Shown: positions 38,055 to 60,220 of the stretch, piece by piece
Layout: the number at the start of each line of letters is the position of its first letter
Position numbering within the stretch: position 1 is the first letter of the stretch
From: an uncultured Candidatus Saccharibacteria bacterium
GTDB lineage: Bacteria; Patescibacteriota; WWE3; 9FT-COMBO-53-11
Direction of reading: 5' to 3'
DNA: 64,000 nt
Assembly (NCBI GenBank): GCA_964348395.1
Contig: CAYGCK010000001.1
Coordinates: forward strand, 21,018-85,017
Position numbers and translations under genes: made by a program
The notes under the pieces: model-generated
Told to the model about the DNA's origin: nothing
What the model saw: only the letters and a program-made list of their open reading frames with translations
The model's database searches: none

Positions 38055-38330
38055 TTACAGGATTCTAAACTTAATCTCCTCCACCGCGCGAGCGGGAAGC
38101 TGCTCGTTTATCACCTTCTTGAGTTCTCTTGCTTTCAAAAAAAGCTCTTGTGAGTGTGTGGGAGAGGGGGAAGCTAAGACGAGTCTGCCGTCTTTGAACG
38201 AGACCATTTCTGCCCACTTTGGAAGTATTCTTTTGCAGATGGCTTCTACCTTAAGAGCCAGAGCGACTCCTCTTATGGGGCTTCTGCGAAGCGACGTGTC
38301 CAGGGTATCTTTGAGCGGCTCGAATGTCAT
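38055..38330 (-). CDS. DUF721 (DciA-like) small protein
   Basis: W-x-E ... DGRLVLASPSPTHSQELFLKARELKKVIN fits the DUF721 pattern; 4-nt overlap with the preceding ATPase ORF. Confidence 0.45.
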   Translation of the reverse strand: MTFEPLKDTLDTSLRRSPIRGVALALKVEAICKRILPKWAEMVSFKDGRLVLASPSPTHSQELFLKARELKKVINEQLPARAVEEIKFRIL

Positions 38331-41076: not shown

Positions 41077-42530
41077 TATCCTTTGGGTTTGATCTCCAAC
41101 TCCTCTACTTTCTCTCCTGTAAGCTCAAGTTTTATTGTATCAAAGGGTTGGGGAGCCTTCGGTATCTCTAAAGTGTAAGTTCCATTGGGCAAGGAGGCGG
41201 TGGCGAACTTCCCAAGCTCGTTGGTTCGCGTCGCTCGAACCACATTTCCTTTGGCGTCTTTTATTACGACGAGGGTCTGGGACAACACCCCGCCTCCTGA
41301 GTCGTGTACGACTCCCTCTATGGCGTTTGCCTGCTCCCCAGTTTTGGGCGCAGGTTTTTTGTCCACTTTGGGGGCAACCTTTTTTACCGTCGGCAAGGGA
41401 GACGGCGGAGGAGGTGGCGGCGGAGCTGAGGGCTCCTCAACCTTCTCCTCCTTAGCCGGTTCGGGTTTTGGTTGGGGTGGGGGCGGTGGAGGAGCTTTGC
41501 CCTCCTCTTTTATGGTGACCTCCTCGGGAGGTGGAAGCGGTATCTCCTTGGGGGGTGGGGTGGGTGGAGGCTCGGGTTTTGCAGGCGGCGCCTCGGGCGC
41601 CGGCGGAGCCGGCTCGGGCTCCTGTGCTACTGGTTGGATAGGCGTGGGGGGGAGCTGCGGAGCCCCTGGGAGTTCGGGCTCAAGAATTCGTTCCCTCGCC
41701 GGGGCATAGACCGCCTCTCCCGATATAGCAATCGGGGTTAGACGCCTACCGACCCTGACGTTTTTTCGGGTTGTGAAGTAGCTTGCCGCCTCTCCGCGCT
41801 GGACCTTGTAGACCTTCTCTGCTGCCCAGTTTATCGGCGAGGCCAAGGACGGTCTTTTCTGGATTTTCTGTACCTCGATAAAGCGAAGCTCGGGCAAAGT
41901 GGGCGCCGGCGGTGCGGGCTTCTCCTCTGGGAGGAGGGGGGCTTCGGGGGGTTTGACGGCTTCTTTGGGAGGAGCTCCGGGGGTTGGAGGCGGTGTGGGT
42001 AAAGCAGGAGGTGCTTTGGGAGCGGTGATCTGCCGCGCCAAGACATTTATGGACTGAAGATACTGCTTCTCCTCCAGATCCAAAGGGCTAATTTCCCCTT
42101 CCTTCTCGCGGACCGCCTCAAGGTAGGTCTGCAACCGCCGCTCCGCTTCCTCTTTGGAGACTCCGGGCGCCGTCTCGGCGGCGATTTTGGGGATTTCCAG
42201 GGTTAAAAACTCGGGAGGTTCCTTGCTTTGCACCCAGACTCGGCGGGTCGGCGCGTAGACCGCTCTCAAAAACGACATCAACCATTGGTCGAGAGGTTGG
42301 TCTTGAACCGGAACAAAGGCCAGACCGACGCCGATAAGGAGAGCGCCTATTGAGAGAAGTAGCCGTATGGGAAGGAATAACCCAGAGGAAAAAATTGCGA
42401 AAGCTAGGACTCCGGCTATTGCCAGAAAGACAAACTGGCGGATAGTAAAGTCGCCTATGAGCTTGAACTGGACCCCAAAAACCTCCTGCGGGACCGGGTG
42501 TTGTTTTCGTGCTTGCGGTTCTTCGGGCAT
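41076..42530 (-). CDS. VirB3/PrgI-like 2-TM protein with long Pro-rich spacer and C-terminal beta-sandwich (CarboxypepD_reg/Cna-B-like) domain
   Basis: N-terminal FGVQFKLIGDFTIRQFVFLAIAGVLAFAIF plus a second TM; about 250 aa of PxxP repeats; C-terminal GVVHDSGGGVLSQTLVVIKDAKGNVVRATRTNELGKFATASLPNGTYTLEI. Confidence 0.4.
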   Translation of the reverse strand: MPEEPQARKQHPVPQEVFGVQFKLIGDFTIRQFVFLAIAGVLAFAIFSSGLFLPIRLLLSIGALLIGVGLAFVPVQDQPLDQWLMSFLRAVYAPTRRVWVQSKEPPEFLTLEIPKIAAETAPGVSKEEAERRLQTYLEAVREKEGEISPLDLEEKQYLQSINVLARQITAPKAPPALPTPPPTPGAPPKEAVKPPEAPLLPEEKPAPPAPTLPELRFIEVQKIQKRPSLASPINWAAEKVYKVQRGEAASYFTTRKNVRVGRRLTPIAISGEAVYAPARERILEPELPGAPQLPPTPIQPVAQEPEPAPPAPEAPPAKPEPPPTPPPKEIPLPPPEEVTIKEEGKAPPPPPPQPKPEPAKEEKVEEPSAPPPPPPPSPLPTVKKVAPKVDKKPAPKTGEQANAIEGVVHDSGGGVLSQTLVVIKDAKGNVVRATRTNELGKFATASLPNGTYTLEIPKAPQPFDTIKLELTGEKVEELEIKPKG

Positions 42531-42662: not shown

Positions 42663-43109
42663 ATGTTCGTGATCGACTTTATGTCCCGAGCATGGCCTTA
42701 CCCGGCTTTGGCTCTGGCACTCGCCGCGATTGTGGCCTTCGCGCTGGCGCACCGCCCCTTCCGGCAAGGCGTTTGGTCGCTGATCGAGCGATTCGCCGGT
42801 TGGTTGCAGACCAACACCCCTAAAGCAGGGGGTATGGTTTGGACTCTCGGCGGCAAGGGACTGGGAGGACTGGCTAAGATAGTAGTCTGGGTCCTCTCCA
42901 AAGCCGGAGTTGTGATCCTGCTTCTCTTTCTCCTAGGCATCCTTGGGATTGCTTGGCAGATAGGGAACTTCGGTTTTCAGGTGGGGGTCCAGTACGAAGG
43001 AGACGCATTCACGACCTTCTTCAAGTGGTCTGCTTTAGCGTTTGCTCTGCTCCTGGGAGGTATAGTCTTGATCCCTCTCTTTGCGACGCTAAAGAAGCTG
43101 GTGAGCTAG
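42663..43109 (+). CDS. membrane protein (4 TM), unknown function, embedded in the T4SS-like island on the opposite strand
   Basis: Good SD; 148 aa. Confidence 0.45.
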   Translation: MFVIDFMSRAWPYPALALALAAIVAFALAHRPFRQGVWSLIERFAGWLQTNTPKAGGMVWTLGGKGLGGLAKIVVWVLSKAGVVILLLFLLGILGIAWQIGNFGFQVGVQYEGDAFTTFFKWSALAFALLLGGIVLIPLFATLKKLVS

Positions 43110-43129: not shown

Positions 43130-43177
43130 GCCCTGGGTTTACGTCTTTTTAAGACGAGCCCGGGGCTTACTTTTTGC
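43130..43177 (+). terminator. compound hairpin followed by T-run (terminator between convergent genes)
   Basis: Outer stem GCCCTGGG / CCCGGGGC enclosing CGTCTT-TTT-AAGACG, then TTACTTTTTG. Confidence 0.4.
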
Positions 43178-44408
43178 CGAACATACCCTTAATATCTAGG
43201 GCGTCTTCGACCATTGATGGGGCTTTGAAGGCGGCGGCGATCATTATTAAAGCCAGTACTCCCCCTATAACTCCTTGCGCTCCGAAAACCCCGCCGGCTA
43301 AGTCCCCGTAAGTTCCGCTTATTACGTTTTGTATCCTTTCTGTCGCGCTGGCGGCAGTGCCGACTGCTAACCCTACACCCAGGTAAAGGAAGAACAAGAC
43401 TACCGGGAATACCAAAGTCTTAGCGGTAACGTTTTTAAAGAAGTTTGTTATCGATCCCTCCTGACCGGGTAAAGAGCCAAAGAGGAGAAGTATCGGGGAG
43501 AAAACGGTGTAGATAAGGATGTAGCCGTAAGCTATTAAGACTCTTATGAAGGTCAACCCCAAAAGTACCACGGCCGCGACAGCAAAAATTGCCAGAAGAA
43601 CCAGCGATGAAAGCGCGCTTTGCACCTCGGCCAAACCTTCGAGCCCTCCTAAGAAAACTCCGGTTATCATAGCAGGAGCGGGAGAAAGAGACGCTGCTAT
43701 CGAGCCAGCTCCACCCACAAGGTCAGCGGTTATAGTGCCAAAGGCCTCGGAAATGGCCGTGAGAACTAGATTACTAGTGAAAACCGCGCCGACGTCGATG
43801 ATAAGAGCGATAATAGGGTACGAGAAGGTTATGAGAACCAATCCCAGCAGTATTTTGGGAAGAGCATTGGTGAAAGTTACGACGACTCTGGGAGAAATTT
43901 CCTTTTGCAGGATAATCATAAGGCCGATCACGACCACCACTATCACAAAAAGCCCGTACGCCACGTTTCTCATCCCGCTCCAAACCTCTCGAATGGGGGT
44001 GAGAGCTCCCTGTCCCAAAGTTTCCTGAGCTCTTACTGGGGTATTAAGGAGGTTATCGGCGAGCTCTCCTCGCACGTACTCGCCCAAATCCACAGGCGGA
44101 AAAGTATAGGCCAGTCCCCCCATCCGACCGACAGCCGCCACCAGACCTTGGTCCCAATCCCCACGAACCATCTTATTGATATCCCCGATACTAACCTCGT
44201 CGAAATCTTCCCCAACAGTGGTATAGGAAACGAAGTTCATAGCGGATACGCCGGCGGCGCGGACGGTGCAGTTTATATTAGTAATACACTTAGCTTTTTC
44301 CCACAGGTCGTCAAAAGGCCAAAGGTCAATGGCGTGTGCCGGAGCGGCTTTAAAGCCAAAGAGGGCGAGAGTTATTAAAGGTATCAGGAGAAGTTTAAGC
44401 TTCTTCAC
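43167..44408 (-). CDS. VirB6/TrbL-like polytopic membrane protein with signal peptide and periplasmic N-domain
   Basis: GTG start; signal peptide; about 110-aa exported domain; 6-7 TM helices. Assignment rests on topology and context, not on a motif. Confidence 0.35.
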   Translation of the reverse strand: MKKLKLLLIPLITLALFGFKAAPAHAIDLWPFDDLWEKAKCITNINCTVRAAGVSAMNFVSYTTVGEDFDEVSIGDINKMVRGDWDQGLVAAVGRMGGLAYTFPPVDLGEYVRGELADNLLNTPVRAQETLGQGALTPIREVWSGMRNVAYGLFVIVVVVIGLMIILQKEISPRVVVTFTNALPKILLGLVLITFSYPIIALIIDVGAVFTSNLVLTAISEAFGTITADLVGGAGSIAASLSPAPAMITGVFLGGLEGLAEVQSALSSLVLLAIFAVAAVVLLGLTFIRVLIAYGYILIYTVFSPILLLFGSLPGQEGSITNFFKNVTAKTLVFPVVLFFLYLGVGLAVGTAASATERIQNVISGTYGDLAGGVFGAQGVIGGVLALIMIAAAFKAPSMVEDALDIKGMFGKK

Positions 44409-44481: not shown

Positions 44482-46422
44482 ATGGCGGTTTTCCAGAACA
44501 TCTTTAGCTTCTTTATGCCCGGTAGGCGCCCCGCCTCTCCTGATGGAGGCGGAGGTCCCACGGATCCGGCTGCTATGCAGCGCACGTTGGGCACGATCGA
44601 AGCAACGCTTAGGGAATATGATGTTTCGGAGGGGATAATCGCAAATGTTAGACAAGATTTTATAACGGCTTTTAACGCGGGGACGGCTCCGGTCACTTCT
44701 CTACCTGGTGTGCCCGGCGCAGCGATTTCTAACCTCCGCGTCAATCTTTACAACCTCGCCACTGCCCCGAGTAAGGTCACGGATTCGTGGCAGAAGACTC
44801 TAAGGAATACTCTCAACCAAAACCTTATCACCAGACACTTGGAGGACAAGCTCGTTGTCGAACAGGTATTGGGCGCTCTAGGTGGGGAGCTTGTCGGCGC
44901 CGATATCAGAAACGCCTTTTCCGCTTGGGTTTACCAGACGGATAGCAGATCAGACCGTATAGAGAAAGCAATGGAGATTGGGGAAAAGCTCGAAACCTCC
45001 CTCGATGCAAGAAGATCCGCGCTTCAAGAGCAATTGGAGGCCGAGTTGAGTCGATTATCCGACCCCGCCCATGTGCGCGTTCGCCTCGAGGAACTTAAAA
45101 ATCAAGGGGTAAAGACGATTAATGGAGTAGATGTGGAACAGGCTTATCGTGGAGCTCTTTTTGCCGAGTTAAAACTAAAAGACCATCAAAGCAACTACCA
45201 AAAAGCGCTTAGCGACGCTGCCGCCTTTGAATCTAGAGGAGATACAAAGCGAGCCGCATCGATGCGGGCTAACGCGGAGTTTATCCAAAAAAATTTGAAC
45301 AAGGATTTAGGCCGATGGCAGTCGACGTCCAAAGGCTACAGACAGACCTGGATCGGCGAAGCCGCCTCCTCGATACAGGCTCGAGCAGCTGCTCTTGAAG
45401 CAAGCTACAAACAACTATCCACTTATCTGAGAAACAGGAACATCCGTTATGGCGTTCACAACTTTTTAACAACCCTGCGCAAAGATGGGGTCGGTGGAGT
45501 GTTTCGGGAGTATGCTTGGAAGAGCTTCACAAAGAGATTGGGAAGCCTCTACCCGCCAAACGCTATAAGGGCGTTTCTGAAAAAAACCCCCATACTTAAG
45601 CCTTTGCAGATAGTGAACCAATGGAGAGCTCAGCTGACCTCGTTAGCCCTAAAAGGAATCACGCAGTTAGCTCGGAAACTGGGGTTGGGGAGGATCTTAG
45701 GTGCTGCGCTTGGCTCTGCGCTTCCCGGTGCTGGAACTGCCTTAGGGGCCGTTTTAGGAGCTGTTATTCAGTTCGCTGGAGAAGTGGTTATTGAAAAGCT
45801 GGGCGGGGTGCTTAAACTTGTGGGGTATACAATTGCGGGGGCTATGGGGTGTGTAATGCTCGTTTTGGTAGGGTTTGTGATTCTTGTTTCCATTATCCTA
45901 AGCGACTATTCTGCCGCCGAGGGGATTGACTGTGATCAGACCGCAACCGCCACCGACGCGTGCGTCGCCTCCAAAGCCGCGGTCAAAAACATTGCGGACA
46001 ACTGGGGCGTAGGGCCCGGGAACCACGTGGAGGAGTGCTACAACGACGTAATCGCCAAATCCAAGGAGGTTGGGGTGGACCCTCGAATCTCTATGACGAT
46101 CTGGCTAAACGAAAGTAACGCCTCAAACTACGAGCTTTATAAGCGGTTGGGTGAACCGCCTCAGGATTTTGGTATCCCCGCTCGCGCCGGCGACGGATTC
46201 ACCGCCCAGATAACCACCTTTCTCAACTTCTACAAAAGCAGCCATCAAACTTATGCGTCGTGCTATCAGGGTTACAGCGACGCGGAGGGTTTCTTTAGAG
46301 CGTTTTGTACCGCGGGGCGGGAAGAGTTTGGGGTGGGACAGTGCCCTAACCTCACCGGAGAAGGTGAGGATTGTGTGGATATCTATACGGGGGTTTATAG
46401 TTCGATTAACAGGTGCCAGTAA
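44482..46422 (+). CDS. large coiled-coil membrane protein with Cys-rich extracytoplasmic C-terminal domain (possible SLT-like lytic transglycosylase motif)
   Basis: No signal peptide; about 430 aa helical; 2 TM helices near 440-480. The C-terminus AKSKEVGVDPRISMTIWLNESNAS resembles the SLT catalytic E-S region, weakly. Confidence 0.45.
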   Translation: MAVFQNIFSFFMPGRRPASPDGGGGPTDPAAMQRTLGTIEATLREYDVSEGIIANVRQDFITAFNAGTAPVTSLPGVPGAAISNLRVNLYNLATAPSKVTDSWQKTLRNTLNQNLITRHLEDKLVVEQVLGALGGELVGADIRNAFSAWVYQTDSRSDRIEKAMEIGEKLETSLDARRSALQEQLEAELSRLSDPAHVRVRLEELKNQGVKTINGVDVEQAYRGALFAELKLKDHQSNYQKALSDAAAFESRGDTKRAASMRANAEFIQKNLNKDLGRWQSTSKGYRQTWIGEAASSIQARAAALEASYKQLSTYLRNRNIRYGVHNFLTTLRKDGVGGVFREYAWKSFTKRLGSLYPPNAIRAFLKKTPILKPLQIVNQWRAQLTSLALKGITQLARKLGLGRILGAALGSALPGAGTALGAVLGAVIQFAGEVVIEKLGGVLKLVGYTIAGAMGCVMLVLVGFVILVSIILSDYSAAEGIDCDQTATATDACVASKAAVKNIADNWGVGPGNHVEECYNDVIAKSKEVGVDPRISMTIWLNESNASNYELYKRLGEPPQDFGIPARAGDGFTAQITTFLNFYKSSHQTYASCYQGYSDAEGFFRAFCTAGREEFGVGQCPNLTGEGEDCVDIYTGVYSSINRCQ

Positions 46423-46425
46423 GGG

Positions 46426-47112
46426 TCAGTCGATCAAAAAATAGTAGCTGTATTCGTTTAAGTCAACTCCGATTGCTTCCAAATCCCCAAGAGCTCTGTT
46501 TTTAGCCGCTTCTACCTCCGCTCCCAGAGCGTTTTCTCCAAGAGTTAGGCGGATTCGGAATGCCTCTTTTTCAAAGTTGTAGACGATAACATACTCGTTG
46601 GTTTCTATAGGGATGCTCGCGTACCAAGGATAGGTTTTATAGAAATCTTTTTCGGCCTCGGCGACCAAGAAGTCGTCCGCCGCCTGCTGTCGGGCTTCCT
46701 CTTCTATTTGTTCCTTGGCTTTGTCCGTCGTTTTAAAAGAAAATGAATAGATCTCCTTCTGCTTGTAAAGGACGGCTACGGTGTAGGTTGTTGCGCTCTC
46801 CAATCCCTGGTCGATGGTTACCTGGAGGGTATTTGCGGAACTCCAGGTGGCGGAGGAGTCCGTCTCTGGATTGATTACCACAGCGACGTCGCTTTGGACG
46901 GCCCCATCCAACTCTTCTTGGAACGTTATCTCCAACGGGAGAATACCGAGTACCCCTTCTTCGTTGTCCTGGGGAATTGTTGAGGCGACAGCTGGCATAA
47001 GCTCGGGCTCTCTTATTAACAAGATCCCTACGATGAGCATAGCAATCAAACCCACTATCAAAATAATTGCGGTTATGGTTATAGTCCTTGGGGAGATATC
47101 TTCTAATTTCAT
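46426..47112 (-). CDS. N-terminally anchored hypothetical protein, last gene of the pilin operon
   Basis: ATGA overlap with the CHAP gene; single TM. Confidence 0.45.
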   Translation of the reverse strand: MKLEDISPRTITITAIILIVGLIAMLIVGILLIREPELMPAVASTIPQDNEEGVLGILPLEITFQEELDGAVQSDVAVVINPETDSSATWSSANTLQVTIDQGLESATTYTVAVLYKQKEIYSFSFKTTDKAKEQIEEEARQQAADDFLVAEAEKDFYKTYPWYASIPIETNEYVIVYNFEKEAFRIRLTLGENALGAEVEAAKNRALGDLEAIGVDLNEYSYYFLID

Positions 47113-48995
47113 GGTCTGCCAAAACCCTCAATCTTAAAGCCGCCGGCACTTTGGATTCGACCGTCGTCTCCAACGGGCAAGACCAACGATTTTGTAGCCG
47201 CGTTTGAGTGAACTATTCTGATAGCATCCTGCGTGACGCTATAGACTATACCGACGTGGTTTATACGCCACGAGGTAGCGTTTGAGACTCTAAAGAAGAC
47301 TGCGTAACCCGGCTGAAGATTGTGCCAGGTGGCGTCTCTTGCGGCGATGAACCTCCCACCGCTGGAGTAGGTTTCGGTGCCCCCCGAGGCAGTAACGATG
47401 GCCCCAAACGATTTTGCCATTTCGTTAGAGAGAAGACTGTAGCTTTTGCCGTGGGTGGTGTTAACCAAACGCGTACACCAAAACATGTTTATAAATTTAT
47501 CCGGCGGGTATGGGGGGTTGGGGTTTCTTGCGTATTCGGCCTCGTCAAAGTATTGGGGGTAGTCATCCTTACTCCAGTTCCAGAGACACCAAAATCCCTG
47601 GTAGAGATTGTTTACGATTTCCCAAGCCCGCCCGGCGATTCCTCCCATGGTATTGGGGAACTCCAGTGGGGTAGCCTCGTCGGTGCATACAATCGGAAAT
47701 CCGGCGAAGGGCCCAAACGCCGCTTCGCACGCCCCGACAGCCGCGTTTGCCGGGTGGGCGGTGAGTTGGTCGTAGATGCAGGAAGTGGCGCTTCCTACGT
47801 TTCCAAGGTCCGCGATGTGAAGGTTTGAACTATCGTTATATGTGGCTTTGCCCTCGCTGTGCGGATCGTAGACGTAGTTTAGGAGGGGTTTGGCCTGTTC
47901 GGTCATAAAGAACTTCCCTGGAGGAAGAAGAACATTGAGCACGCCACCACCACCGGCGGTGGTGCTCGGGGCGCCTATCCTCTCCCACGCGTCGCTGGCG
48001 TAGGATACTTCTGTCTGCGTGTCGAGATTTCCTCCAATTTCGTAATTGAATTCCCCCGCGCTGTCGGGGCAATCTGTAATGTTGCCGTCCTCATCGGTTT
48101 CGCAGGGTAGCCTCTCCTCCTCTGCATCCTCCTCCGGAACTGGTTGATACGCCGTCCAGGGAGCAACTCTGTGGGGATTGGCGTCCGCGAAACCTACTGT
48201 CGGTGTAACCACGATGGTGCTGGGGTCGTAGGCGGAGCAATCTTTGTCTAGATCCGGTATGTCCGCAACCTCTTGGGTAAAGGGAACTAGAGCTTGTTTC
48301 AAGAGCCCAAAACGGTCATAAAGGGGAGAGACCTCGCCAAATCTCCCTTGGACGTCGTAGTTTGCGACGGCTTCCTCTTCCGCTCCTAGTTGGAGGTCGT
48401 AGTATCCTAGCCGGTTGGGGTCAAAGCCGGTGTCTTCATAAACCGCGCTGGGGATTGTGGTAGTGAAACCCTTTTGAAGGGCTCGGTTGTTGAGGATTAT
48501 GGTTCCCGTGACCAGCTGGCCCTCCGACTTGGTGAGTTCCTCGAGCGGGTCGCGGTCGTCCTGTCTGTAGTTAGGAGCTAGAACGCGGGCTATGGAACCA
48601 TTAAGTTCCCCAGGCTCGTCGGATGTGGGGTCCCCCGATAGAGCGAGTCGGTTGGCTCGCCTAAGGTATGGGGGCATTTGGGAGTCTTGGAGGTTGAGGT
48701 TCCCTGGACCGGTGTAGTCGGCGAAGAGTTTGGCGAGAACACAAGTGACGAAACCGATTAAGCCGCCTTGAGAGCACGCCTTGTTAATAACATCGTCTTC
48801 CTTAAGCTCGTTGGGGTTGGTAGCTACGTCGGAAGGTGATAGGCTCCCACTCTTAAACTGTGGACAAACCGTAGTTGCCGCGGTGACTTGAGGGGCAGAG
48901 CCAAGAATTAAGAACAGAAGAACAGTAAGCAGGACTAGGGGTTTTCTTGGGATATTCATCAAGAAAATCTTATCAGAAATATCTTGAAACCCCAT
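47109..48995 (-). CDS. secreted cell-wall hydrolase with C-terminal CHAP-like domain
   Basis: Signal peptide; C-terminal NMFWCTRLVNTTHG ... GYAVFF ... HVGIVYSV gives a Cys/His arrangement like CHAP amidase/peptidase. Confidence 0.55.
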   Translation of the reverse strand: MGFQDISDKIFLMNIPRKPLVLLTVLLFLILGSAPQVTAATTVCPQFKSGSLSPSDVATNPNELKEDDVINKACSQGGLIGFVTCVLAKLFADYTGPGNLNLQDSQMPPYLRRANRLALSGDPTSDEPGELNGSIARVLAPNYRQDDRDPLEELTKSEGQLVTGTIILNNRALQKGFTTTIPSAVYEDTGFDPNRLGYYDLQLGAEEEAVANYDVQGRFGEVSPLYDRFGLLKQALVPFTQEVADIPDLDKDCSAYDPSTIVVTPTVGFADANPHRVAPWTAYQPVPEEDAEEERLPCETDEDGNITDCPDSAGEFNYEIGGNLDTQTEVSYASDAWERIGAPSTTAGGGGVLNVLLPPGKFFMTEQAKPLLNYVYDPHSEGKATYNDSSNLHIADLGNVGSATSCIYDQLTAHPANAAVGACEAAFGPFAGFPIVCTDEATPLEFPNTMGGIAGRAWEIVNNLYQGFWCLWNWSKDDYPQYFDEAEYARNPNPPYPPDKFINMFWCTRLVNTTHGKSYSLLSNEMAKSFGAIVTASGGTETYSSGGRFIAARDATWHNLQPGYAVFFRVSNATSWRINHVGIVYSVTQDAIRIVHSNAATKSLVLPVGDDGRIQSAGGFKIEGFGRP

Positions 48996-49010
48996 TGGAA
49001 AGAAATTTAT

Positions 49011-49379
49011 CTAGCGGGCGATGGATGTCAGGACCAGATTTACGATAAATATGGCCGCAATAATAAGAACGAGTCCAAGAATTGAGTAGGTGATGGTTGC
49101 TTTGGCGGTCGAGAGAGATTTTTCGTCACCTCCGGACATCATGTATTGGATTCCACCGTAGATGAGAAACAGTACCGCCACTGTTCCGGCAAGACCGAGA
49201 AGGACATCCACAATTCGCGCGATTATGCAAAATATGCCAGATATCTCTTCGGTTGAGCACGCGGTGAGGGATATTCCAAGGTAATCCTCTATAAAGTCAA
49301 AGGCACTAGCCGCAAAAACCGGCTGAGCCAGACCTAATGAGGCAATCGCTGCTGCAGATGAGCTCAATATTATTTTCAT
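49011..49379 (-). CDS. VirB2/TrbC-like pilin paralog 1
   Basis: SD AAGGAGG 7 nt upstream of ATG 49379. Signal peptide, then two hydrophobic helices separated by IYGGIQYMMSGGDEKS. Confidence 0.55.
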   Translation of the reverse strand: MKIILSSSAAAIASLGLAQPVFAASAFDFIEDYLGISLTACSTEEISGIFCIIARIVDVLLGLAGTVAVLFLIYGGIQYMMSGGDEKSLSTAKATITYSILGLVLIIAAIFIVNLVLTSIAR

Positions 49380-49442
49380 CGTTATCCTCCTTTCAACGTT
49401 AAACACTTTAAGACCAAGCGCTGGGGCAATCCTTACCTAAAT

Positions 49443-49796
49443 CTAGACTGCACAGGCCGGTATATTTGGTGTGATTGTACGTAAGACAACGTTGACGATC
49501 AACCAGGCCCCAAGAACAATTACAAGCCCGATAACCGCGCTAGTAATTCGGCCTCGTGCCTGCTCAACCCCAATCTTATCTCCGCCGGAGGTCATGTACT
49601 GGATACCACCCATAATGAGAATAATGACGGCGATTGTTCCGGCTATTCCGAAAAGGATGTTAGTGATAGCGGAAGCAGCGTCGCAGATGGAATCCCACCG
49701 CAACGGGTTTTTCCCTGCCTGCGCGAGAACCGGTGTAGCTGACAACGCTAACGCACTGATTGTTGCTGCTGTCGTTTTGACTTTGTTTCTAAGCAC
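49443..49796 (-). CDS. VirB2/TrbC-like pilin paralog 2
   Basis: GTG start with GGAGGTGA SD; signal peptide; IMGGIQYMTSGGDKIG between two hydrophobic helices. Confidence 0.55.
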   Translation of the reverse strand: MLRNKVKTTAATISALALSATPVLAQAGKNPLRWDSICDAASAITNILFGIAGTIAVIILIMGGIQYMTSGGDKIGVEQARGRITSAVIGLVIVLGAWLIVNVVLRTITPNIPACAV

Positions 49797-49811
49797 TTAT
49801 TTCACCTCCTC

Positions 49812-50429
49812 TCAAAACGGAAAGATGTCCGGACTAATACCTATAATCCTAATTCCGATTATATGGAGTATTACAGTGGATATCAAGAGAAATACTAAGC
49901 CGGATATTGCGGCCGTGATTTGGGCTCTTGCCTTTTGGAGTTTGTCCGGGTCACCCGTGGATGTTGCAACCCCGTACCCACCGACGACGATTAAAAGGAT
50001 GGAAAGTAAGGTTCCTATACCGATACCAACCCTAAGAAGCACGGTGGCTAGAGCCGTGGGGTTGGTGGGGAGCGTGATGAATCCTATGTCGATCTCGTCC
50101 TTGCCCTCTGGTAATTTGATTTCCACTTCCCCGGCCTCTTCTCCCTCTACATTGTTGGTTGGAGTCGTTTCCGGCTCTGGAGTCGGGGTGGGCGTTGGTG
50201 TTCCATCGTCGCAGGTGTAAGTTCCTGATGCGCAGGTGGATGGGGATCTGGGTAAACATGGGTTGGGAGAGGGAGTGCAGGTGCTGGGCTGAACATCACA
50301 ATAATTATCCGCGCGTAACTGACAGTTGTAGGTCGCCGCGTAAGTTGTGGATAGTGAGGAGGCCGATAATCCAAGGAAAGTTAAGGTTATGAGCAAACCG
50401 AAAAATATCTGGGCAAGTGATTTCTTCAT
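49812..50429 (-). CDS. VirB2/TrbC-like pilin paralog 3 with Cys-rich / PT-rich N-terminal extension
   Basis: Signal peptide MKKSLAQIFFGLLITLTFLGL; Cys-rich segment and TPTPTPTPEPETTPT linker. C-terminal LLSILLIVVGGYGVATSTGDPDK ... hydrophobic pair. The upstream part of the ORF-track ORF is rejected because it overlaps the divergent gene. Confidence 0.5.
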   Translation of the reverse strand: MKKSLAQIFFGLLITLTFLGLSASSLSTTYAATYNCQLRADNYCDVQPSTCTPSPNPCLPRSPSTCASGTYTCDDGTPTPTPTPEPETTPTNNVEGEEAGEVEIKLPEGKDEIDIGFITLPTNPTALATVLLRVGIGIGTLLSILLIVVGGYGVATSTGDPDKLQKARAQITAAISGLVFLLISTVILHIIGIRIIGISPDIFPF

Positions 50430-50508
50430 TCTCAAGCTGATAATAGCAGAACTCACGGGAAATACGCTAGAGGATAAAGCGGCCGGCCCCTTGCTACAAT
50501 ATAAAGGT
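50430..50508. promoter_or_regulatory. divergent promoter region; extended -10 (TGCTACAAT at 50492-50500) places the transcription start at or next to ATG 50509 (leaderless)
   Basis: TGn-TACAAT ends 8 nt before the plus-strand ATG. A minus-strand TATTAT lies 10 nt before pilin-3 ATG, with no SD. Confidence 0.3.
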
Positions 50509-52323
50509 ATGGTTCCAAAACTGCCCCAAGTTCGCAAACTCACTGTTTTTGGTTTAGTTCTCGCTCTCCTTGGCGTAGTAATAAGCTTCCAACTTACCTC
50601 GGCGGATGAGCTCGACGACGTAACCAACGAGCTTTCCCAGCAGCAACAACAGCTTTCCGATCTTGAAGAAAGAAAAGAACAGCTGGCGCGGGATATCTCC
50701 TCGGCCTCTGCATCTTTATCCCAGGTTTCTGCCGAGCTTTCACAAGCAGAAGAAGAGTTATCGGCGATAGAAAGTGAGCTCGCCAAGCGTGAGGCGACTC
50801 TAAAGCAGTGGGAGGAAGACCGCAACTTCCTTATAAGAGTCCTCTACAAACAAAGCCGCGTATCCCCTGTCGAGGTGGTTTTTTCCTCCGACAATCTGGT
50901 TGAATCGACCAAAAACCTACAGTACTACGATGACAACCTAGATCTTCTTAAAGACCGGATAGGATTACTGGTCGACGAGATAGGGGTTTTCCAAGCCAAC
51001 AAAGCCACCGCCCGGCAGTTGCGTGATGATCTTGCCGCTCTTAGGGATCAATATCAATACCGTCTTGCTTCAAGCCAGCGCCAGTTTTCTTCAACTTCCT
51101 CGCAATTAGCTTCCGTCAAGTCTTCGATCCAAAACCTAACCGCGCAGCAGGAACAGTTGATACTGGCAAAGTTTGCTGCTGGTGGCGGGAGTGAGACGGT
51201 TGGGGATAGCCCACCTCTATCCGAGCAATTACCTGACCCATCGTTCTCCCCCGCTTATATGGTGGCCGCCTACGGGTATCCCCATCGAATTGGGATGAGC
51301 CAGTACGGGGCCTATGGTCGAGCGAAGAAAAACCAAGATTATAAATCAATTCTGGCTGCTTATTACAAAGTTTCTGCCTCAAGTATCCAGACTTACCGGG
51401 TTGGAGGAACTATCCACGTAAAGGGTTGTAGCGTAGGCCCACCGCCTTGGTACCCCGGAGGAGGAGGTTGGAGTCAGAGTACTTGTCAAAGCAAAGGGTA
51501 TAAGTGGTACGACGCCACTTTAAGCATGGAAACATATATTAAGGGTCTTGGAGAAATGCCACTAAGTTGGGGAAGCGCTGCGATGGAGGCATATAAAGCC
51601 CAGGCGGTTGCTGGACGTAGTTATGCCTGGGCCTATGCGGATGGAAATGGAGGGACTATTTGCCCATCAACTTACTGTCAGGTCTATTTGGGTTATAACA
51701 AAGGGAGTTACTGGGAACAGGCCGTGAACGCTACACCGAACCAAGTGATTGTACAGGGCGGAGCCCCACTTAAGGCGTTCTATCACTCCACCGCCGGTGG
51801 TTACACCATCTCTACGCAGCAATGGACTAGCTACTGGAACTACATCGATGGCATTAAAGACTTTCACTCCGACGGACAAGCATACGAGCAGGTCGCTAGT
51901 GCTCCTTGGTACCACACTGGATGGGGTTCTCGTACCGGTAGTGGTTATAATCCTTGGATGACGCAGGAAGAGTTTGCCGATATCTTCAATGCAATTCTGC
52001 TTTGTCGCAAGTCGAACACCCAGCCCTACGAACTCGCTTCCGACTGTCCGTATATGCAATACCTCTCTCCGATAGACAAAGGCGGTTGGGATATGCCCAC
52101 AGTTCGAAACAACGTTTCGGGTGTTACTCCGATAACGTCTATCTCGGCGGTTGTTCCCACATTTCCATCAGGAGTCCCGGCCAACACCTCGACTGTCCTC
52201 GTTTATGGGTCACATGGAACTTACGCCTTTAGCGCCCGTTACTTTAGGGATATGTTCAATTTACGCTCCCGCGGGACTCTCCAAATTCCTACCTACCGCT
52301 TCGATTTCACTGTTAAGCAGTAG
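50509..52323 (+). CDS. SpoIID/LytB-family lytic transglycosylase with N-terminal signal anchor and long coiled coil
   Basis: ETYIKGLGEMPLSWGSAAMEAYKAQAVAGRSYA ... TYCQVYLGY ... FYHSTAGGYT match the SpoIID domain. N-terminal about 230 aa is coiled coil with a QQQQ stretch. Confidence 0.75.
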   Translation: MVPKLPQVRKLTVFGLVLALLGVVISFQLTSADELDDVTNELSQQQQQLSDLEERKEQLARDISSASASLSQVSAELSQAEEELSAIESELAKREATLKQWEEDRNFLIRVLYKQSRVSPVEVVFSSDNLVESTKNLQYYDDNLDLLKDRIGLLVDEIGVFQANKATARQLRDDLAALRDQYQYRLASSQRQFSSTSSQLASVKSSIQNLTAQQEQLILAKFAAGGGSETVGDSPPLSEQLPDPSFSPAYMVAAYGYPHRIGMSQYGAYGRAKKNQDYKSILAAYYKVSASSIQTYRVGGTIHVKGCSVGPPPWYPGGGGWSQSTCQSKGYKWYDATLSMETYIKGLGEMPLSWGSAAMEAYKAQAVAGRSYAWAYADGNGGTICPSTYCQVYLGYNKGSYWEQAVNATPNQVIVQGGAPLKAFYHSTAGGYTISTQQWTSYWNYIDGIKDFHSDGQAYEQVASAPWYHTGWGSRTGSGYNPWMTQEEFADIFNAILLCRKSNTQPYELASDCPYMQYLSPIDKGGWDMPTVRNNVSGVTPITSISAVVPTFPSGVPANTSTVLVYGSHGTYAFSARYFRDMFNLRSRGTLQIPTYRFDFTVKQ

Positions 52324-52346: not shown

Positions 52347-54341
52347 ATGCCTCAGGAGTTAGAGGTTAAAGTCTCCAAACTAGAAGGCTCCCCTGCCGCC
52401 GAGCGCGGAAAGACTGTTCAGGTTTTCGAGTTCATCCCCCCTCAAGGAGAGGATTTTCCGGAAGAACGAGGACAACTTTTTGCCGTTGTGGAGGTGAATT
52501 TGCCCACCGAGCGGCAAGAGGTGGATTTGACCGAGGACGCGGCTTTGGCCGCCAAACTCGTTTGGGATACCCTAGTCGGAACCTATTATGATCCATCGGA
52601 AGAAACAGCGCTAAAGGCGCTGGAGGATGCAACCGAAACCGCCCGCGAGAAGCTTAAAGATTTCGCCGAGGATAGCGACCTTAACCTCATAGCTGTCGCC
52701 ATTTTAGGAAACGTCGCTTATTTCTCCCGCGTCGGCGGCGGCGCACTTTATCTTAGGCGAGGCGCGGAGGTTAGAGATTTAGCTCAAGAGGAGGAAGCCG
52801 TCGATATCGGTTCCGAGATTTTAGAGGGAGACGATGTTTTAGCCGTGGGGTCCCCGGTTTTTGGCAAAAACTTCACCGCCGCCAACCTCCCTCAAACGGA
52901 ATTTCTGGTTAAACAATTCGAGCAAGGGGTTAAGGTCCCGGGTTTTTCCGCTCTCCTTTTAATGCTCAAACCCTCAAGGGAATCACGCGAGGAGGCGGTA
53001 AAAAATGGGGTATCCCGCTCCCCACTCGCAAAGATTTTCAAAAGAGCAAAGAAACTGCCCGCGGATCTGCCTAAAGTTAAGCTCGGCGCCTTGTCCCCGT
53101 CAAAACTAGGTAAAGGGGTTTCGCGCTTCTTGAGCGACCGCGTTTCTCGAGGCAAAAAGCTAGCGGAGGCGAGAAAGGCGGCGCCTGAGGAGAGAGAGGG
53201 CGGGGAAGAGCTTAAGGCGCTCAAACCGCCTAAGCTTAAAAAGCTTCCCCGGCTGCCATTGTCGCGAATCATTGCCGTTTTGGTGATTCTTCTTGTCGTT
53301 TCCATCGGGTTCACCGTATGGAGGCAAGCGCAAAAAGCCAAGGCGGAGGAGTTTGAACGCATCATCACCGAAACCACGCAAAGTTTGGACGAGGCGGCAG
53401 GTCTGGTGGGGTTGTCAAACGAGCGGGCGCTTGAGCTCGTCGAAGAAGCGCGTGCCGATTTGGAGCGGGCGAGGGATATAGACCCCCGCTCTGGCGAGAT
53501 AGACCCCTTGTTGTCGCGCGCCGAGGAACTCTACAACGCCATAGAGAAAATTACTCCGGTTGGGGAGGAGCATATAGTATACGATTTGGGACTCCAGGTC
53601 GAGGGGGCTCAGGGTGTAGCCATCTCCGGTTCTGGAACCACACTTTATGTTGCAGATTCAACAAGCGGATCGGTATTTTCGATTGTTATCCCTTCGGGGG
53701 AGGGGGAGCTTCCGCAGGTTTCGGCTATCGCAGAGGGAACTATACAAGGTATCCGCGAGATCGGCTCCGAAGGCGGATTCTTATATCTACTTTCCGAAGA
53801 TAAACTCTACCGGTTTAACTTGTCGACCAAGGCGGTCGACGAGCCCGTACCTTTCGAGCGCTATAGCCTCTCCGTCTCCTTGGATACATACTCTGGGAAC
53901 GTCTATCTTTTAGTTCCCGAGGAGGATCAGATCTACAAGTTCTGGAATCTCGAGACGGGATATTCTAAGGCGGTTTCTTGGGTTAAGGCGGTCGTGGACT
54001 TGGGGTACTTTACGGATATGGCGGTGGATGGGGATATCTGGCTCTCCGCCTCCGGTGGAGAGATTATGCGTCTGACCAAGGGTGAGGGCACCGCTTTCGC
54101 GATTTCCAATCTGTCGACACCTTTTTCTAGTGTGAACAAAATATTTACCCGCCCCAATCTAATCCGCCTTTACATTCTTGACACAGGAAACCAGAGGGTC
54201 GTGGTTTTGGACAAAGGAGGGAATTTTGTCCGGCAGGTCAAGGGCGACGGATTGGAGGGAGCTACAGACCTTTGGGTTTCGGAGGACGAGAAAACACTCT
54301 ACATACTCGTAGGTAGCAAGATTTACCGCATAGGTTTGTAG
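52347..54341 (+). CDS. membrane-anchored protein with C-terminal beta-propeller-like repeats
   Basis: Central TM (IIAVLVILLVVSIGF). C-terminal repeated LYV/LYI ... D motifs suggest NHL/YVTN-like blades. The N-domain is unassigned. Confidence 0.45.
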   Translation: MPQELEVKVSKLEGSPAAERGKTVQVFEFIPPQGEDFPEERGQLFAVVEVNLPTERQEVDLTEDAALAAKLVWDTLVGTYYDPSEETALKALEDATETAREKLKDFAEDSDLNLIAVAILGNVAYFSRVGGGALYLRRGAEVRDLAQEEEAVDIGSEILEGDDVLAVGSPVFGKNFTAANLPQTEFLVKQFEQGVKVPGFSALLLMLKPSRESREEAVKNGVSRSPLAKIFKRAKKLPADLPKVKLGALSPSKLGKGVSRFLSDRVSRGKKLAEARKAAPEEREGGEELKALKPPKLKKLPRLPLSRIIAVLVILLVVSIGFTVWRQAQKAKAEEFERIITETTQSLDEAAGLVGLSNERALELVEEARADLERARDIDPRSGEIDPLLSRAEELYNAIEKITPVGEEHIVYDLGLQVEGAQGVAISGSGTTLYVADSTSGSVFSIVIPSGEGELPQVSAIAEGTIQGIREIGSEGGFLYLLSEDKLYRFNLSTKAVDEPVPFERYSLSVSLDTYSGNVYLLVPEEDQIYKFWNLETGYSKAVSWVKAVVDLGYFTDMAVDGDIWLSASGGEIMRLTKGEGTAFAISNLSTPFSSVNKIFTRPNLIRLYILDTGNQRVVVLDKGGNFVRQVKGDGLEGATDLWVSEDEKTLYILVGSKIYRIGL

Positions 54342-54414: not shown

Positions 54415-54506
54415 TGGCGGAGGGTGTGGGATTCGAACCCACGCGGCGGCTGTTAACCACCAACGGTTTAGCAAACCGTCGCCTTAAACCACTCGGCCAA
54501 CCCTCC
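54415..54506 (-). tRNA. tRNA-Ser (GCT)
   Basis: Reverse complement folds as a type II tRNA: acceptor GGAGGGT, anticodon loop TTGCTAA, long variable arm, T-arm GTGGG-TTCGAAT-CCCAC, CCA. Confidence 0.85.
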
Positions 54507-54557
54507 GTACCCTTTATTTTACCAGCAGGGCGCTTGCTTTTTGCTAAACTACCCTTG

Positions 54558-55055
54558 ATGGAGCGGCAGGGGGAAAAGGAAAACATTCTTTTGGAGTGGG
54601 AATCCCCAGAGAGAGCGTTCACAAAAAAGGGAACATCCTACTTTCGCAACCTCTTCACACTTTTGGCGATTTTGGCCGCGGTCGCTATCTTCTTTAAAGA
54701 GTTTCTTCTCGCCGGAGTTTTGGCGGCTCTCGGTTTCGTGAAGTGGGCGCTCGGGACGACCCCTCCCAAGGAATCCAAGCATTCCGTTTCCAACCTCGGC
54801 ATAAGGACCCACGGGCACCAGTATACCTGGGACCAGCTCAAGGACTTCTGGTTCGACGAGATTGCTGGTCAGCGAGCGCTTCTTGTGGATACAAAGAGCC
54901 TCTATCCCGGAAGGCTCTTTCTTATTCTGGATGGGGCTAAGGAGGGAGAGGTCAAGGAGACGCTTAGGCAATACCTCCCTTACCGCCAAAAGGTCAAAGA
55001 AGATTTTCTGGAGAAGATCTCCGTCGGTATCGCCCGTAAGTTTCCATTAGAGTAG
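54558..55055 (+). CDS. hypothetical membrane protein
   Basis: Internal ATG chosen because the upstream part of the ORF-track ORF is antisense to tRNA-Ser; 2 TM helices. Confidence 0.4.
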   Translation: MERQGEKENILLEWESPERAFTKKGTSYFRNLFTLLAILAAVAIFFKEFLLAGVLAALGFVKWALGTTPPKESKHSVSNLGIRTHGHQYTWDQLKDFWFDEIAGQRALLVDTKSLYPGRLFLILDGAKEGEVKETLRQYLPYRQKVKEDFLEKISVGIARKFPLE

Positions 55056-55087
55056 GTTTTCCGTTCTCGGGTTATAATTAAATGTTA

Positions 55088-55164
55088 GTCCTCGTAGCTC
55101 AACTGGACAGAGCGTCAGCTTGCGGAGCTGAAGGTTGGGTGTTCGAGTCACCCCGGGGACACCA
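55088..55164 (+). tRNA. tRNA-Arg (anticodon GCG as read)
   Basis: Acceptor GTCCTCG/CGGGGAC, D-arm GCTC-AACTGGACA-GAGC, anticodon stem TCAGC/GCTGA with loop TTGCGGA, T-arm GGGTG-TTCGAGT-CACCC, CCA. Near-identical D-arm to the tRNA-Arg(CCG) downstream. Confidence 0.75.
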
Positions 55165-55168
55165 TTTA

Positions 55169-55258
55169 GGAAGGGTGGCAGAGTGGACGATTGCGCACGC
55201 CTTGAGAGCGTGAGACCCCGCAAGGGGTTCGGGGGTTCGAATCCCTCCCCTTCCGCCA
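55169..55258 (+). tRNA. tRNA-Ser (TGA)
   Basis: Type II tRNA: acceptor GGAAGGG, anticodon loop CTTGAGA, long variable arm, CCA. Confidence 0.85.
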
Positions 55259-55263
55259 CACTT

Positions 55264-55351
55264 GGAGGGGTCGCATAGTGGCCTAGTGCGCACGCTTGGA
55301 GAGCGTGTAATCCGAAAGGATTCGCGGGTTCGAATCCCGCCCCCTCCGCCA
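55264..55351 (+). tRNA. tRNA-Ser (GGA)
   Basis: Acceptor GGAGGGG, anticodon loop TTGGAGA, long variable arm, T-arm GCGGG-TTCGAAT-CCCGC, CCA. Confidence 0.85.
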
Positions 55352-55352
55352 C

Positions 55353-55429
55353 GCGCCCGTAGCTCAACTGGACAGAGCGTCGGTTTCCGGAACCGAAGGC
55401 TGTGGGTTCAAGTCCCTCCGGGCGTACCA
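55353..55429 (+). tRNA. tRNA-Arg (CCG)
   Basis: Acceptor GCGCCCG, anticodon loop TTCCGGA, T-arm GTGGG-TTCAAGT-CCCTC, CCA. Confidence 0.85.
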
Positions 55430-55461
55430 TCTAAATTGGTGTCGGTGAATTCCGGAGGAAT

Positions 55462-55478
55462 AGTCGCCTAAGGCGACT
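55462..55478 (+). other. short hairpin AGTCGCC-TAA-GGCGACT downstream of the tRNA cluster
   Basis: Perfect 7-bp stem; no T-run follows. Confidence 0.25.
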
Positions 55479-55503
55479 GCTCGAGTCCTGCTGGGAGCAC
55501 CAC

Positions 55504-56259
55504 CTATCTGGATAGATATTCCTCAAGAGTAAGACCTTGGTTAAAAAGTTGAGTAGCCAGATCGATTCCGACCCACCTCACATGCCAGGGTTCCGATATG
55601 TACCCCGTGATGCTCTCCTTCCCCGGTGGGTAGGAGACCACGAACCCAAAGCGATGGGCGTTTTTGGCTACCCAGGGAGCCGCTGGGCTCGACACGAACC
55701 TCTCAAAATTTACGTTTTCCGCAAGAGCCAAATCGACGGTTGTCCCGAGCTGATGCTCGGAGTGTCCAGGGAGAGCTGAACCCCTCAGAGCCGCCTCCCA
55801 CCCGACCTGCTCCACCCACCATAAGAAAACCAGCTCCTGCTCGGCGTAGGAGCGGTAGGCCGAAGCGACCGCGAGTTCATAGCCCGCCTCCTGTGCCGCG
55901 CCGAAAAGTTGGTAGAGGTAGGGGAGAATACCTGCTCGTAACCTTTGGGTTCCAAAGGTAGGTACCGACGTAATCTGTGTGAGATTGGTAGGGACGTAGC
56001 TTGATGGCAGACCATAGATTTTGTTTATATGCGCTAGAGTTGTGTCTTCGACGGCGGATAAAACTACCTCCCCTTGGGGAGCCAGAACGCTCCTCTCCTC
56101 GGCGAAGGTTCCCTCCTCGATCTCAACCGGCGGAACGGTTACAAATAGATCGTAGTAGGATGAGGCAGATATCTCCCGTGGTTGAGAGATTCGGCTTGCC
56201 ATACCAAAAGTCAGAATAAAAAGGTAGGATACGACGGGGTAAAGTTTTTCTTTATTCAT
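55504..56259 (-). CDS. M15B (VanY-like) D-Ala-D-Ala carboxypeptidase family protein
   Basis: SAYRSYAEQ, LPGHSEHQLGTTVDL and EPWHVRWVG zinc-binding motifs. Internal ATG 56259 chosen because the upstream part is antisense to tRNA-Ser(CGA). Confidence 0.7.
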   Translation of the reverse strand: MNKEKLYPVVSYLFILTFGMASRISQPREISASSYYDLFVTVPPVEIEEGTFAEERSVLAPQGEVVLSAVEDTTLAHINKIYGLPSSYVPTNLTQITSVPTFGTQRLRAGILPYLYQLFGAAQEAGYELAVASAYRSYAEQELVFLWWVEQVGWEAALRGSALPGHSEHQLGTTVDLALAENVNFERFVSSPAAPWVAKNAHRFGFVVSYPPGKESITGYISEPWHVRWVGIDLATQLFNQGLTLEEYLSR

Positions 56260-56284
56260 ATCATTATTATAATGATAAGGAAGA

Positions 56285-56372
56285 GGAGGCGTGCCGGAGC
56301 GGCCTAACGGGCTGGTCTCGAAAACCATGCGGGGTTTACCCCACGGAGGTTCGAATCCTCCCGCCTCCGCCA
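56285..56372 (+). tRNA. tRNA-Ser (CGA)
   Basis: Acceptor GGAGGCG, anticodon loop CTCGAAA, long variable arm, T-arm GGAGG-TTCGAAT-CCTCC, CCA. Confidence 0.85.
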
Positions 56373-56382
56373 CTCGACTCTG

Positions 56383-59425: not shown

Positions 59426-59456
59426 ACCGGCTTAAGCGTTCTCGAAATCCTTCTTC

Positions 59457-60218: not shown

Positions 60219-60220
60219 TT

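Follow-up and report, generated by a model that had tools for sequence, protein, structure and literature searches.

Three candidate cell-wall hydrolases encoded around the pilin genes of an origin-proximal type IV secretion system in Patescibacteria

INTRODUCTION

The stretch of DNA analyzed here (the window: 64,000 nucleotides of contig CAYGCK010000001.1, positions 21,018 to 85,017, from assembly GCA_964348395.1 of an uncultured Candidatus Saccharibacteria bacterium placed by GTDB in Patescibacteriota, WWE3) carries a type IV secretion system (T4SS) in which three genes for candidate cell-wall hydrolases, here called proteins A, B and C, lie around a tandem array of pilin genes. Judging from their domains, conserved residues and gene neighborhoods, these proteins probably form the cell-wall-remodeling set of a Patescibacteria-type T4SS, with the VirB1-type function distributed over three polypeptides. 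Each of the three is linked to T4SS genes in many genomes, and all three genes are intact open reading frames (ORFs) at the following coordinates.

44482-46422, + strand: protein A, 646 amino acids (aa) (ORF)
45913-46419, + strand: putative lysozyme-like (GH23/goose-lysozyme/SLT-like) domain of protein A, aa 478-646 (family search, AlphaFold2 [AF2] model, Foldseek)
46426-47112, - strand: membrane-anchored immunoglobulin (Ig)-like (Big_5) protein, 228 aa (PF13205)
47109-48995, - strand: protein B, 628 aa (ORF, PF05257)
47112-47687, - strand: predicted CHAP domain of protein B, aa 437-628 (PF05257, invariant triad)
47700-48878, - strand: N-terminal module of protein B, aa ~40-432, after the signal peptide (14-sequence alignment)
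49011-49406, 49443-49796 and 49812-50459, - strand: three tandem VirB2/TrbC-type T4SS pilin genes (PF18895, PF04956)
50509-52323, + strand: protein C, 604 aa from the ATG at 50509 (TIGR02669, PF08486)
52347-54341, + strand: 664-aa propeller-like membrane protein (weak NHL, YVTN and 6-bladed-propeller matches)

An earlier reading of this DNA from its letters alone (the original prediction) had proposed three different peptidoglycan-lytic enzymes at this locus, namely a CHAP-like hydrolase beside the pilins, a coiled-coil SpoIID/LytB protein transcribed divergently from them and a membrane protein with a weak SLT-like E-S motif. Hydrolase-type domains with conserved candidate catalytic residues are found in all three proteins, and each of these assignments is borne out below.

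RESULTS

Protein C, a Coiled-Coil SpoIID/LytB Protein Paired With the Pilins

Protein C scores above threshold against both SpoIID/LytB profiles (TIGR02669, 102.7 bits versus a cutoff of 83.3; PF08486, 49 bits versus 23) and matches the SpoIID structures 4rwr, 5i1t and 5txu in the PDB. A transmembrane (TM) anchor at aa 11-29 is followed by a coiled coil of ~200 aa (family matches at approximately aa 85-285 in the numbering of the 658-aa maximal ORF) and by the SpoIID/LytB domain from aa ~245, an architecture that is widespread in Patescibacteria (280 matches). The start at 50509 is backed by the N-termini of homologues (MVxKLPxVRKL...), and its ATG is preceded by AAAGG; the public annotation (GTO10_01970) starts the protein at 50389 (644 aa), inside the divergent pilin gene. 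Only 49 bp separate the start at 50509 from that of the divergent pilin gene at 50459.

The candidate catalytic residue is Glu349 (nucleotides 51553-51555), whose GEMP motif aligns with SEMN of SpoIID 4rwr; we take it to be the equivalent of the SpoIID catalytic glutamate, as identified in work on B. subtilis and C. difficile. An alignment of 21 homologues, reaching down to ~31% identity, keeps E349 invariant together with H259, G262-M263, Q265-G267, A364, Q365, R370, C385, C390 and S427-G431. The SpoIID domain (51241-52320) is circularly permuted: its GxGxGMSQYGA segment lies N-terminal to the catalytic-Glu segment, whereas in the SpoIID/LytB proteins of Bacillus, Anoxybacillus and Marinisporobacter it lies C-terminal to it (segment order was compared in comparison loci L055, L060, L070, L071 and L084). 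By these motifs protein C is a permuted subtype within the SpoIID/LytB family and not a protein outside it. That the permutation is unique to Patescibacteria was ruled out by a protein of Sanguibacter (Actinobacteria, L084) with the same order.

The pairing with pilins was followed across GTDB species representatives, with the pilins sought by a hidden Markov model (HMM) built in this analysis. A divergent pilin gene lies within 1.3 kb of SpoIID in 22 of 33 evaluable Patescibacteria loci and in 0 of 42 SpoIID loci from other phyla (Fisher p = 3.7e-11, loci counted without phylogenetic correction), and a pilin gene lies within 3 kb in 24 of the 33. In most loci the gap between the two is 16-250 bp. 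The same divergent pairing was found in five further loci, and it is kept down to 25-35% identity in Microgenomatia, Saccharimonadia, WWE3 and a record titled Parcubacteria; even at 30-37% identity, coiled-coil SpoIID homologues of a Woykebacteria genome and of two unclassified Patescibacteria contigs face a pilin array head-to-head. A divergent coiled-coil SpoIID next to T4SS pilins across Patescibacteria appears to be new: the word "SpoIID" is absent from the text of PMC12102498 and PMC10633639 and from the text-form supplementary tables on strain ML1, and a literature search returned no paper connecting SpoIID with Patescibacteria.

Protein C also has a conserved downstream partner, the 664-aa protein, which begins 23 nt after it and combines a TM segment (aa 306-324), a cytoplasmic N-terminal half and a beta-propeller-like C-terminal part; in 24 of the fetched loci, phmmer detects a match to it at 0.5-5 kb downstream of SpoIID.

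Two Levybacteria loci (L011 and L015) have a co-oriented ~810-aa protein, not pilins, upstream of SpoIID; this protein has an N-terminal TM segment and a conserved LLE(V/I)xLPRENEIKIDAA motif.

Protein B, a Predicted CHAP Domain on a Carrier With Exchangeable Enzymes

Protein B has a signal peptide, an N-terminal module with many conserved cysteines and a C-terminal domain in which Cys507 (FWCT; nucleotides 47475-47477), His580 (NHVGIVY; 47256-47258) and Asn598 (SNA; 47202-47204) are invariant in 14 aligned sequences. The original prediction had named loss of the Cys/His dyad as the result that would speak against a CHAP hydrolase here; the dyad is present. Despite a sub-threshold Pfam score (see Discussion), the CHAP call is secure at the level of sequence, because every one of the 12 CHAP-type homologues gives a PF05257 match with E<=0.01 (best 1.6e-8), the triad is invariant, and a profile of the domain gives weak PDB matches to the NlpC/P60 wall hydrolases 7cfl and 4hpe (the latter being the Tn916-like CTn1-Orf17). 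The Pfam alignment of protein B begins at F505-W506-C507, at profile position 7, and several of its homologues carry a precomputed PF05257 annotation. Protein B itself is identical over 98% of its length to the public protein GTO10_01990.

The homology of protein B to its relative P0013 covers aa 24-432 at 51% identity and breaks off sharply at residue ~432. Beyond the break, the C-terminal domain is Amidase_2 in P0013 and Peptidase_M23 in P0016, P0018 and P0019, so that one protein B-type carrier bears three alternative enzymes (CHAP, Amidase_2 and M23), all of which are predicted to act on the peptide part of the wall. A protein B module that carries CHAP, Amidase_2 or M23 in different relatives appears to be new.

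The gene for protein B runs in the same direction as the three pilin genes, with gaps of 15, 36 and 15 nt in this row, and shares 4 nt with the Big_5 gene that follows it, a geometry that fits an operon of the three pilins, protein B and the Big_5 protein. The Big_5 protein (PF13205, 35.6 bits versus a cutoff of 23.6) has a TM segment at aa 15-33, and its gene follows the hydrolase gene in L001, L002, L004 and L005 as well. The pilin genes match PF18895 with 40.6, 46.2 and 19.5 bits, and the second also matches PF04956 (43.7 bits).

Protein A, a Bitopic Protein With a Putative Lysozyme-Like Domain

Hydropathy gives protein A one strong TM segment (aa 455-473), in addition to a Gly/Ala-rich hydrophobic stretch at aa 413-437. 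Its N-terminal ~410 aa are without a signal peptide and without cysteine and are thus probably cytoplasmic; eight of its nine cysteines lie after the TM segment, within aa 484-645, and we infer that this C-terminal part lies outside the cytoplasm as a lysozyme-like domain.

The C-terminal 169 aa define a family of 333 cluster representatives (clusters at 50% identity) found at E<=1e-3 among 1.84 billion proteins searched; the named members, from three of ten clusters checked, belong to Cerri-, Woese- and Dojkabacteria. The family has the invariant motif W..E(S)..S(NY)....DFG....Q, and in an alignment of 40 divergent members the candidate catalytic Glu544 (nucleotides 46111-46113) is invariant, the Ser545 that follows it is at least 90% conserved, and DFG (D562-F563-G564) is invariant. 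The NESNAS of protein A is presumably the counterpart of RESHAG in GEWL, and we take its DFG to stand where GH23 enzymes have GLMQ.

An AF2 model of the domain, built from the 40 family sequences, has a pLDDT of 95.3 and a pTM of 0.90 and places Glu544 at the C-terminal end of helix 57-68. When this model was compared with the PDB by Foldseek, the top nine matches were all g-type lysozymes (probability 0.84-0.99, TM-score 0.44-0.55, E 0.01-0.2), followed by a GH73 glucosaminidase, the phi6 lysin, MltF, MltE and phiKZ gp144; the top matches in the viral library BFVD were SLT, g-lysozyme, glucosaminidase and LT_GEWL proteins. As modeled, the domain thus has a lysozyme-like all-helical fold, and this fold evidence strengthens what had been proposed from the E-S motif.

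Similarity of the glycosidase domain to SLT is not detectable at the sequence level. Sequence and profile searches of the domain against the PDB and Pfam returned only noise (uS15, isocitrate dehydrogenase kinase), and stray matches among the 40 family members were limited to Glucosaminidase in two (E=0.053) and SLT_2 in one (E=0.07). Support for an enzymatic role comes from the company that the family keeps: members are fused in one chain to M23 (P0064 and P0090) or CHAP (P0076), and they recur in T4SS loci. Homologues of protein A occupy the same position in L001-L004, domain family members lie between the VirB6-like and pilin genes in L007, L013, L014 and L023, and in a Woesebacteria genome one lies directly after VirB4, beside dnaN/dnaA. 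No pilins were detected near the family members of L089 and L090 with the pilin HMM, which may have missed some. The family, with its named members in Patescibacteria and its recurrence in T4SS loci, appears to be new and is a candidate for the "missing VirB1."

The T4SS and Its Chromosomal Setting

The remaining genes of the cluster, and the replication-origin genes that adjoin it, are as follows.

33321-34733: dnaA (adjoins the T4SS cluster)
35640-36317: yidC (adjoins the T4SS cluster)
36831-37922: dnaN (adjoins the T4SS cluster)
38327-40357, - strand: VirB4-like ATPase, T4SS core (T4SS core profile matches PF19044, PF12846 and PF12666)
40360-41076, - strand: 238-aa protein in the position of TraC-like genes, T4SS core
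41076-42530, - strand: PrgI/VirB3-like protein with a CarboxypepD_reg domain, 484 aa, T4SS core (profile matches)
42663-43109, + strand: 148-aa gene with three TM segments (TM count)
43167-44408, - strand: polytopic 413-aa protein (TM count), labeled VirB6-like from its position only

The order SpoIID, pilins, hydrolase, Ig-like protein, protein A, VirB6-like protein, PrgI, VirB4 is kept in the close relatives L001, L003 and L004, and the order of the T4SS core genes is common to L001, L003 and L089. The T4SS lies next to dnaA/yidC/dnaN in L003, L005 and L089 as well as in the window, matching the placement reported for Patescibacteria, whose T4SSs are MPF-FATA-like, carry arrays of VirB2-like pilins, usually have no relaxase and are often near dnaA (Quinonero-Coronel et al., 2025; PMC12102498); epibiotic growth was found to require the equivalent cluster (Wang et al., 2023; PMC10633639). 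The locus is the origin-proximal Patescibacteria T4SS already described in these two papers, a chromosomal system related to the monoderm MPF-FATA class but with VirB2-like pilins. Neither a relaxase nor a VirD4 coupling protein was found among the window ORFs scanned, and a conjugative element was set aside on that ground and because the locus lies beside oriC in several genomes. A scan for promoters and terminators was uninformative (15 promoter-like sites versus 9.0 ± 2.9 expected, with 0 in the 49-bp or 73-bp divergent regions).

The PrgI/VirB3-like protein (41076-42530, - strand) is unusually long, with a ~250-aa proline-rich linker and a C-terminal CarboxypepD_reg (prealbumin-like) domain, and the homologues of L003 and L089 are built in the same way.

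Neighboring Genes

Further along the window are six tRNA genes (four Ser, two Arg; 54415-56372) and an ORF for a VanY-type D,D-carboxypeptidase (55504-56373, - strand; PF02557, 121 bits), a fourth cell-wall enzyme near the locus. The maximal VanY ORF overlaps the tRNA-Ser gene at 56285-56372, so that translation probably begins at a more internal start; L008 likewise has a VanY gene close by. A four-gene set resembling a soluble [NiFe] hydrogenase (58169-62051, - strand), consisting of a large subunit, a small subunit (Oxidored_q6), a FAD/NAD-binding subunit and a 4Fe-4S subunit, is followed by DnaG (62016-63854). On the other side of the cluster, a 353-aa protein with PEGA and SH3_3 domains is encoded at 10856-11917 (- strand); PEGA/Ig-like exported proteins also flank the T4SS hydrolases of S. 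epibionticum (SEML1_0005).

DISCUSSION

We propose a division of labor in which the three hydrolases would together breach the wall locally so that the channel and the pilus can pass. Protein A, as a bitopic protein, would cut glycan strands next to the T4SS machine with its external GH23-like domain; protein B would be exported by the Sec pathway and would remove or cleave stem peptides with its CHAP domain; and protein C, anchored in the membrane and held out on its coiled coil, may be a lytic transglycosylase of the SpoIID type and would break down the glycan that protein B has freed of its peptides. In B. subtilis, SpoIID acts on glycan strands only once an amidase has stripped them of their stem peptides (PMC6635528), which suggests an order in which protein B (or its amidase and M23 variants) acts first and protein C second. 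The VirB1-type job, which falls to one multi-domain protein in Gram-positive conjugation, would thus be split over three polypeptides.

The closest comparison is the cluster of Ca. Southlakia epibionticum ML1 (SEML1_0004-0019), which likewise lies beside dnaA/dnaN, has VirB4, PrgI, VirB6-like proteins and tandem VirB2-like pilins but no relaxase, and carries several peptidoglycan-hydrolase domains beside an Ig-like exported protein (SEML1_0005, the neighbor of SEML1_0006), to which the Big_5 protein of the window is comparable. SEML1_0006 has two lysozyme-like domains and a cysteine proteinase, SEML1_0007 has a DD-peptidase fold, and neither is dispensable for epibiotic growth (PMC10633639, Table S2). 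The two clusters differ in that SEML1_0006, with Pfam-recognizable lysozyme-like domains, and SEML1_0007 both stand directly after VirB4, whereas in the window an unannotated GH23-like domain sits on a separate bitopic protein, the CHAP domain sits on another carrier in the putative pilin operon, and a coiled-coil SpoIID is added.

Membrane-anchored extracellular wall hydrolases are also found in the T4SS clusters of other monoderms, as in PrgK of pCF10 (LytM, SLT and CHAP domains; PMC11323569), TraG of pIP501 (SLT and CHAP; PMC12857230) and Orf14 of Tn916; these join a lysozyme/SLT-type glycosidase to CHAP/NlpC-P60 and, in some cases, to a metallopeptidase. In these all domains are on one polypeptide, whereas the window splits the glycosidase (protein A) from the peptidase (protein B), and those systems are without pilins and without SpoIID. 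The relatives of protein A fused to M23 or CHAP match the SLT+CHAP build of TraG (PMC12857230) and the LytM+SLT+CHAP build of PrgK (PMC11323569).

The original prediction held that one lytic enzyme is usual for a T4SS and that three are excessive for self-wall remodeling. The first statement holds for the VirB1 of Gram-negative systems but not for monoderm systems such as those with PrgK, TraG or SEML1_0006/0007. The second fails: multi-module hydrolases are normal in monoderm T4SSs (three domains in PrgK, four in SEML1_0006/0007), and since this T4SS belongs to a monoderm class (PMC12102498), three modules are ordinary here. The original interpretation is thus partly supported, and its suggestion of action on a host wall is plausible.

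With SpoIID of the sporulation DMP machine (B. subtilis, C. difficile) and its septal counterpart in Waddlia, protein C shares the SpoIID/LytB domain, the catalytic Glu, the GxGxGMSQYGA motif and an N-terminal anchor, and like them it is expected to need a partner that removes stem peptides. It differs from them in the ~200-aa coiled coil between anchor and domain, in a motif order that is permuted relative to Firmicutes SpoIID and in its genomic partner, which is a T4SS pilin array; SpoIIP and SpoIIM were not found. The FtsEX-controlled proteins EnvC, PcsB and CwlO resemble protein C in architecture only (a coiled coil, then a hydrolase domain). As modeled, protein A is like goose-type lysozyme and the family 1 lytic transglycosylases (GH23; 153L, 3GXK, MltE, Slt70) in its all-helical fold, with its candidate Glu-Ser pair at a helix end, and unlike them in having no sequence-level match, a different disulfide pattern and eight cysteines.

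Several points weigh against the proposal that proteins A, B and C are the wall-remodeling set of this T4SS. The score of protein B against PF05257 (18.8-20.1 bits, E=0.0009-0.0024) is below the gathering score of 26, and its full-length AF2 model (14 sequences) has a pLDDT of 36.9 and is unusable for the fold; in this unreliable model C507 starts a helix (506-515) and H580 starts a strand. Protein A and the profiles derived from it have no Pfam, NCBIfam or PDB sequence match, and the fold matches of its domain, consistent as the lists are, are weak one by one (E 0.01-0.2, TM-score ~0.5), which would make the domain a very divergent member of the lysozyme-like superfamily. The pilin array of S. 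epibionticum has no SpoIID annotated beside it (PMC10633639). The LytM and CHAP domains of PrgK proved hydrolytically inactive in vitro and have a regulatory role (PMC11323569), so that conserved residues do not prove activity. No pilin was detected near SpoIID in 9 of the 33 Patescibacteria loci, although the HMM may have missed some. Finally, housekeeping genes (ComFC-like, SmpB, DnaG) are also syntenic in places, and with such synteny near the origin, some of the linkage may be due to a gene order that was inherited and not to function.

These last two points bear on the alternative that survives best, which we regard as a real but minority possibility: protein C could be a housekeeping enzyme of division or elongation, similar to the septal Waddlia SpoIID or to the FtsEX-controlled EnvC, PcsB and CwlO, and its adjacency to the pilins a matter of conserved gene order, leaving A and B as the two hydrolases of the T4SS. 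SpoIID homologues do act at the division septum in non-sporulating bacteria (PMC6635528), and the architecture of protein C is widespread in Patescibacteria and labeled "CwlO-like" by some sources; to this the nine loci with no pilin nearby and the ordered housekeeping neighborhood can be added. On the other hand, the divergent pairing with pilins persists at 25-35% identity over several Patescibacteria groups, with gaps that are mostly within 250 bp, and no ftsEX was found among the window ORFs scanned.

A second alternative is that host peptidoglycan at the point of contact is the target of at least some, and perhaps all, of the enzymes, the secreted protein B in particular; they would let the pilus or T4SS penetrate or would release nutrients. 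Cultivated Saccharibacteria are epibionts of other bacteria, and epibiotic growth requires the T4SS cluster together with its hydrolases (PMC10633639). Protein B carries a signal peptide, and the swapping of its warhead (CHAP, Amidase_2 or M23) among relatives at ~50% identity resembles that of polymorphic effectors and would suit a changing target-wall chemistry better than a slowly changing wall of the producer's own. This exchange of warheads is the single observation of the analysis that points toward a host target, and it does so indirectly, since ordinary autolysins often shuffle catalytic domains too. Proteins A and C, moreover, are anchored in the membrane of the producer, which favors action near its own envelope, and no immunity-like gene was identified, unless the 228-aa Ig-like protein plays that role. 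We consider host-directed lysis unlikely as the main explanation of the locus, although it can coexist with self-wall remodeling.

A more speculative extension, to which we give less credence still, would make the locus a three-part wall-drilling machine of a pilus-bearing T4SS, used on the host wall at the contact between epibiont and host and composed of a peptide stripper with exchangeable warheads, a coiled-coil SpoIID acting on denuded glycan and a tethered lysozyme of a previously unrecognized GH23-like family. If this were true, the type of warhead would track host peptidoglycan chemistry, and the locus would help to determine host range and would physically underlie the epibiotic growth that depends on the T4SS.

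A last alternative, that at least one of the domains lacks catalytic activity and works as a scaffold or regulator, is improbable. It has a precedent in PrgK, whose middle domain alone is active and is down-regulated by the others (PMC11323569), and the CHAP domain of the window does fall below the Pfam threshold, but the LytM active site of PrgK is degenerate, whereas the candidate catalytic residues here are invariant in every family alignment.

No T4SS before that of Patescibacteria had been reported to be indispensable to the growth of the bacterium that carries it. In the main genomic survey of these systems VirB1 homologues were poorly associated with VirB4, and its authors concluded that the pilus may be built without a VirB1 (PMC12102498). 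Together, the lysozyme-like family (333 clusters) and the SpoIID proteins that stand head-to-head with pilins across several Patescibacteria classes offer candidates for this missing wall-cutting function, with a testable division of labor in which a peptidase would act first and SpoIID second, on bare glycan. A comparison of the action of these enzymes on the organism's own sacculi and on those of a host would bear on how epibionts breach or remodel cell walls.

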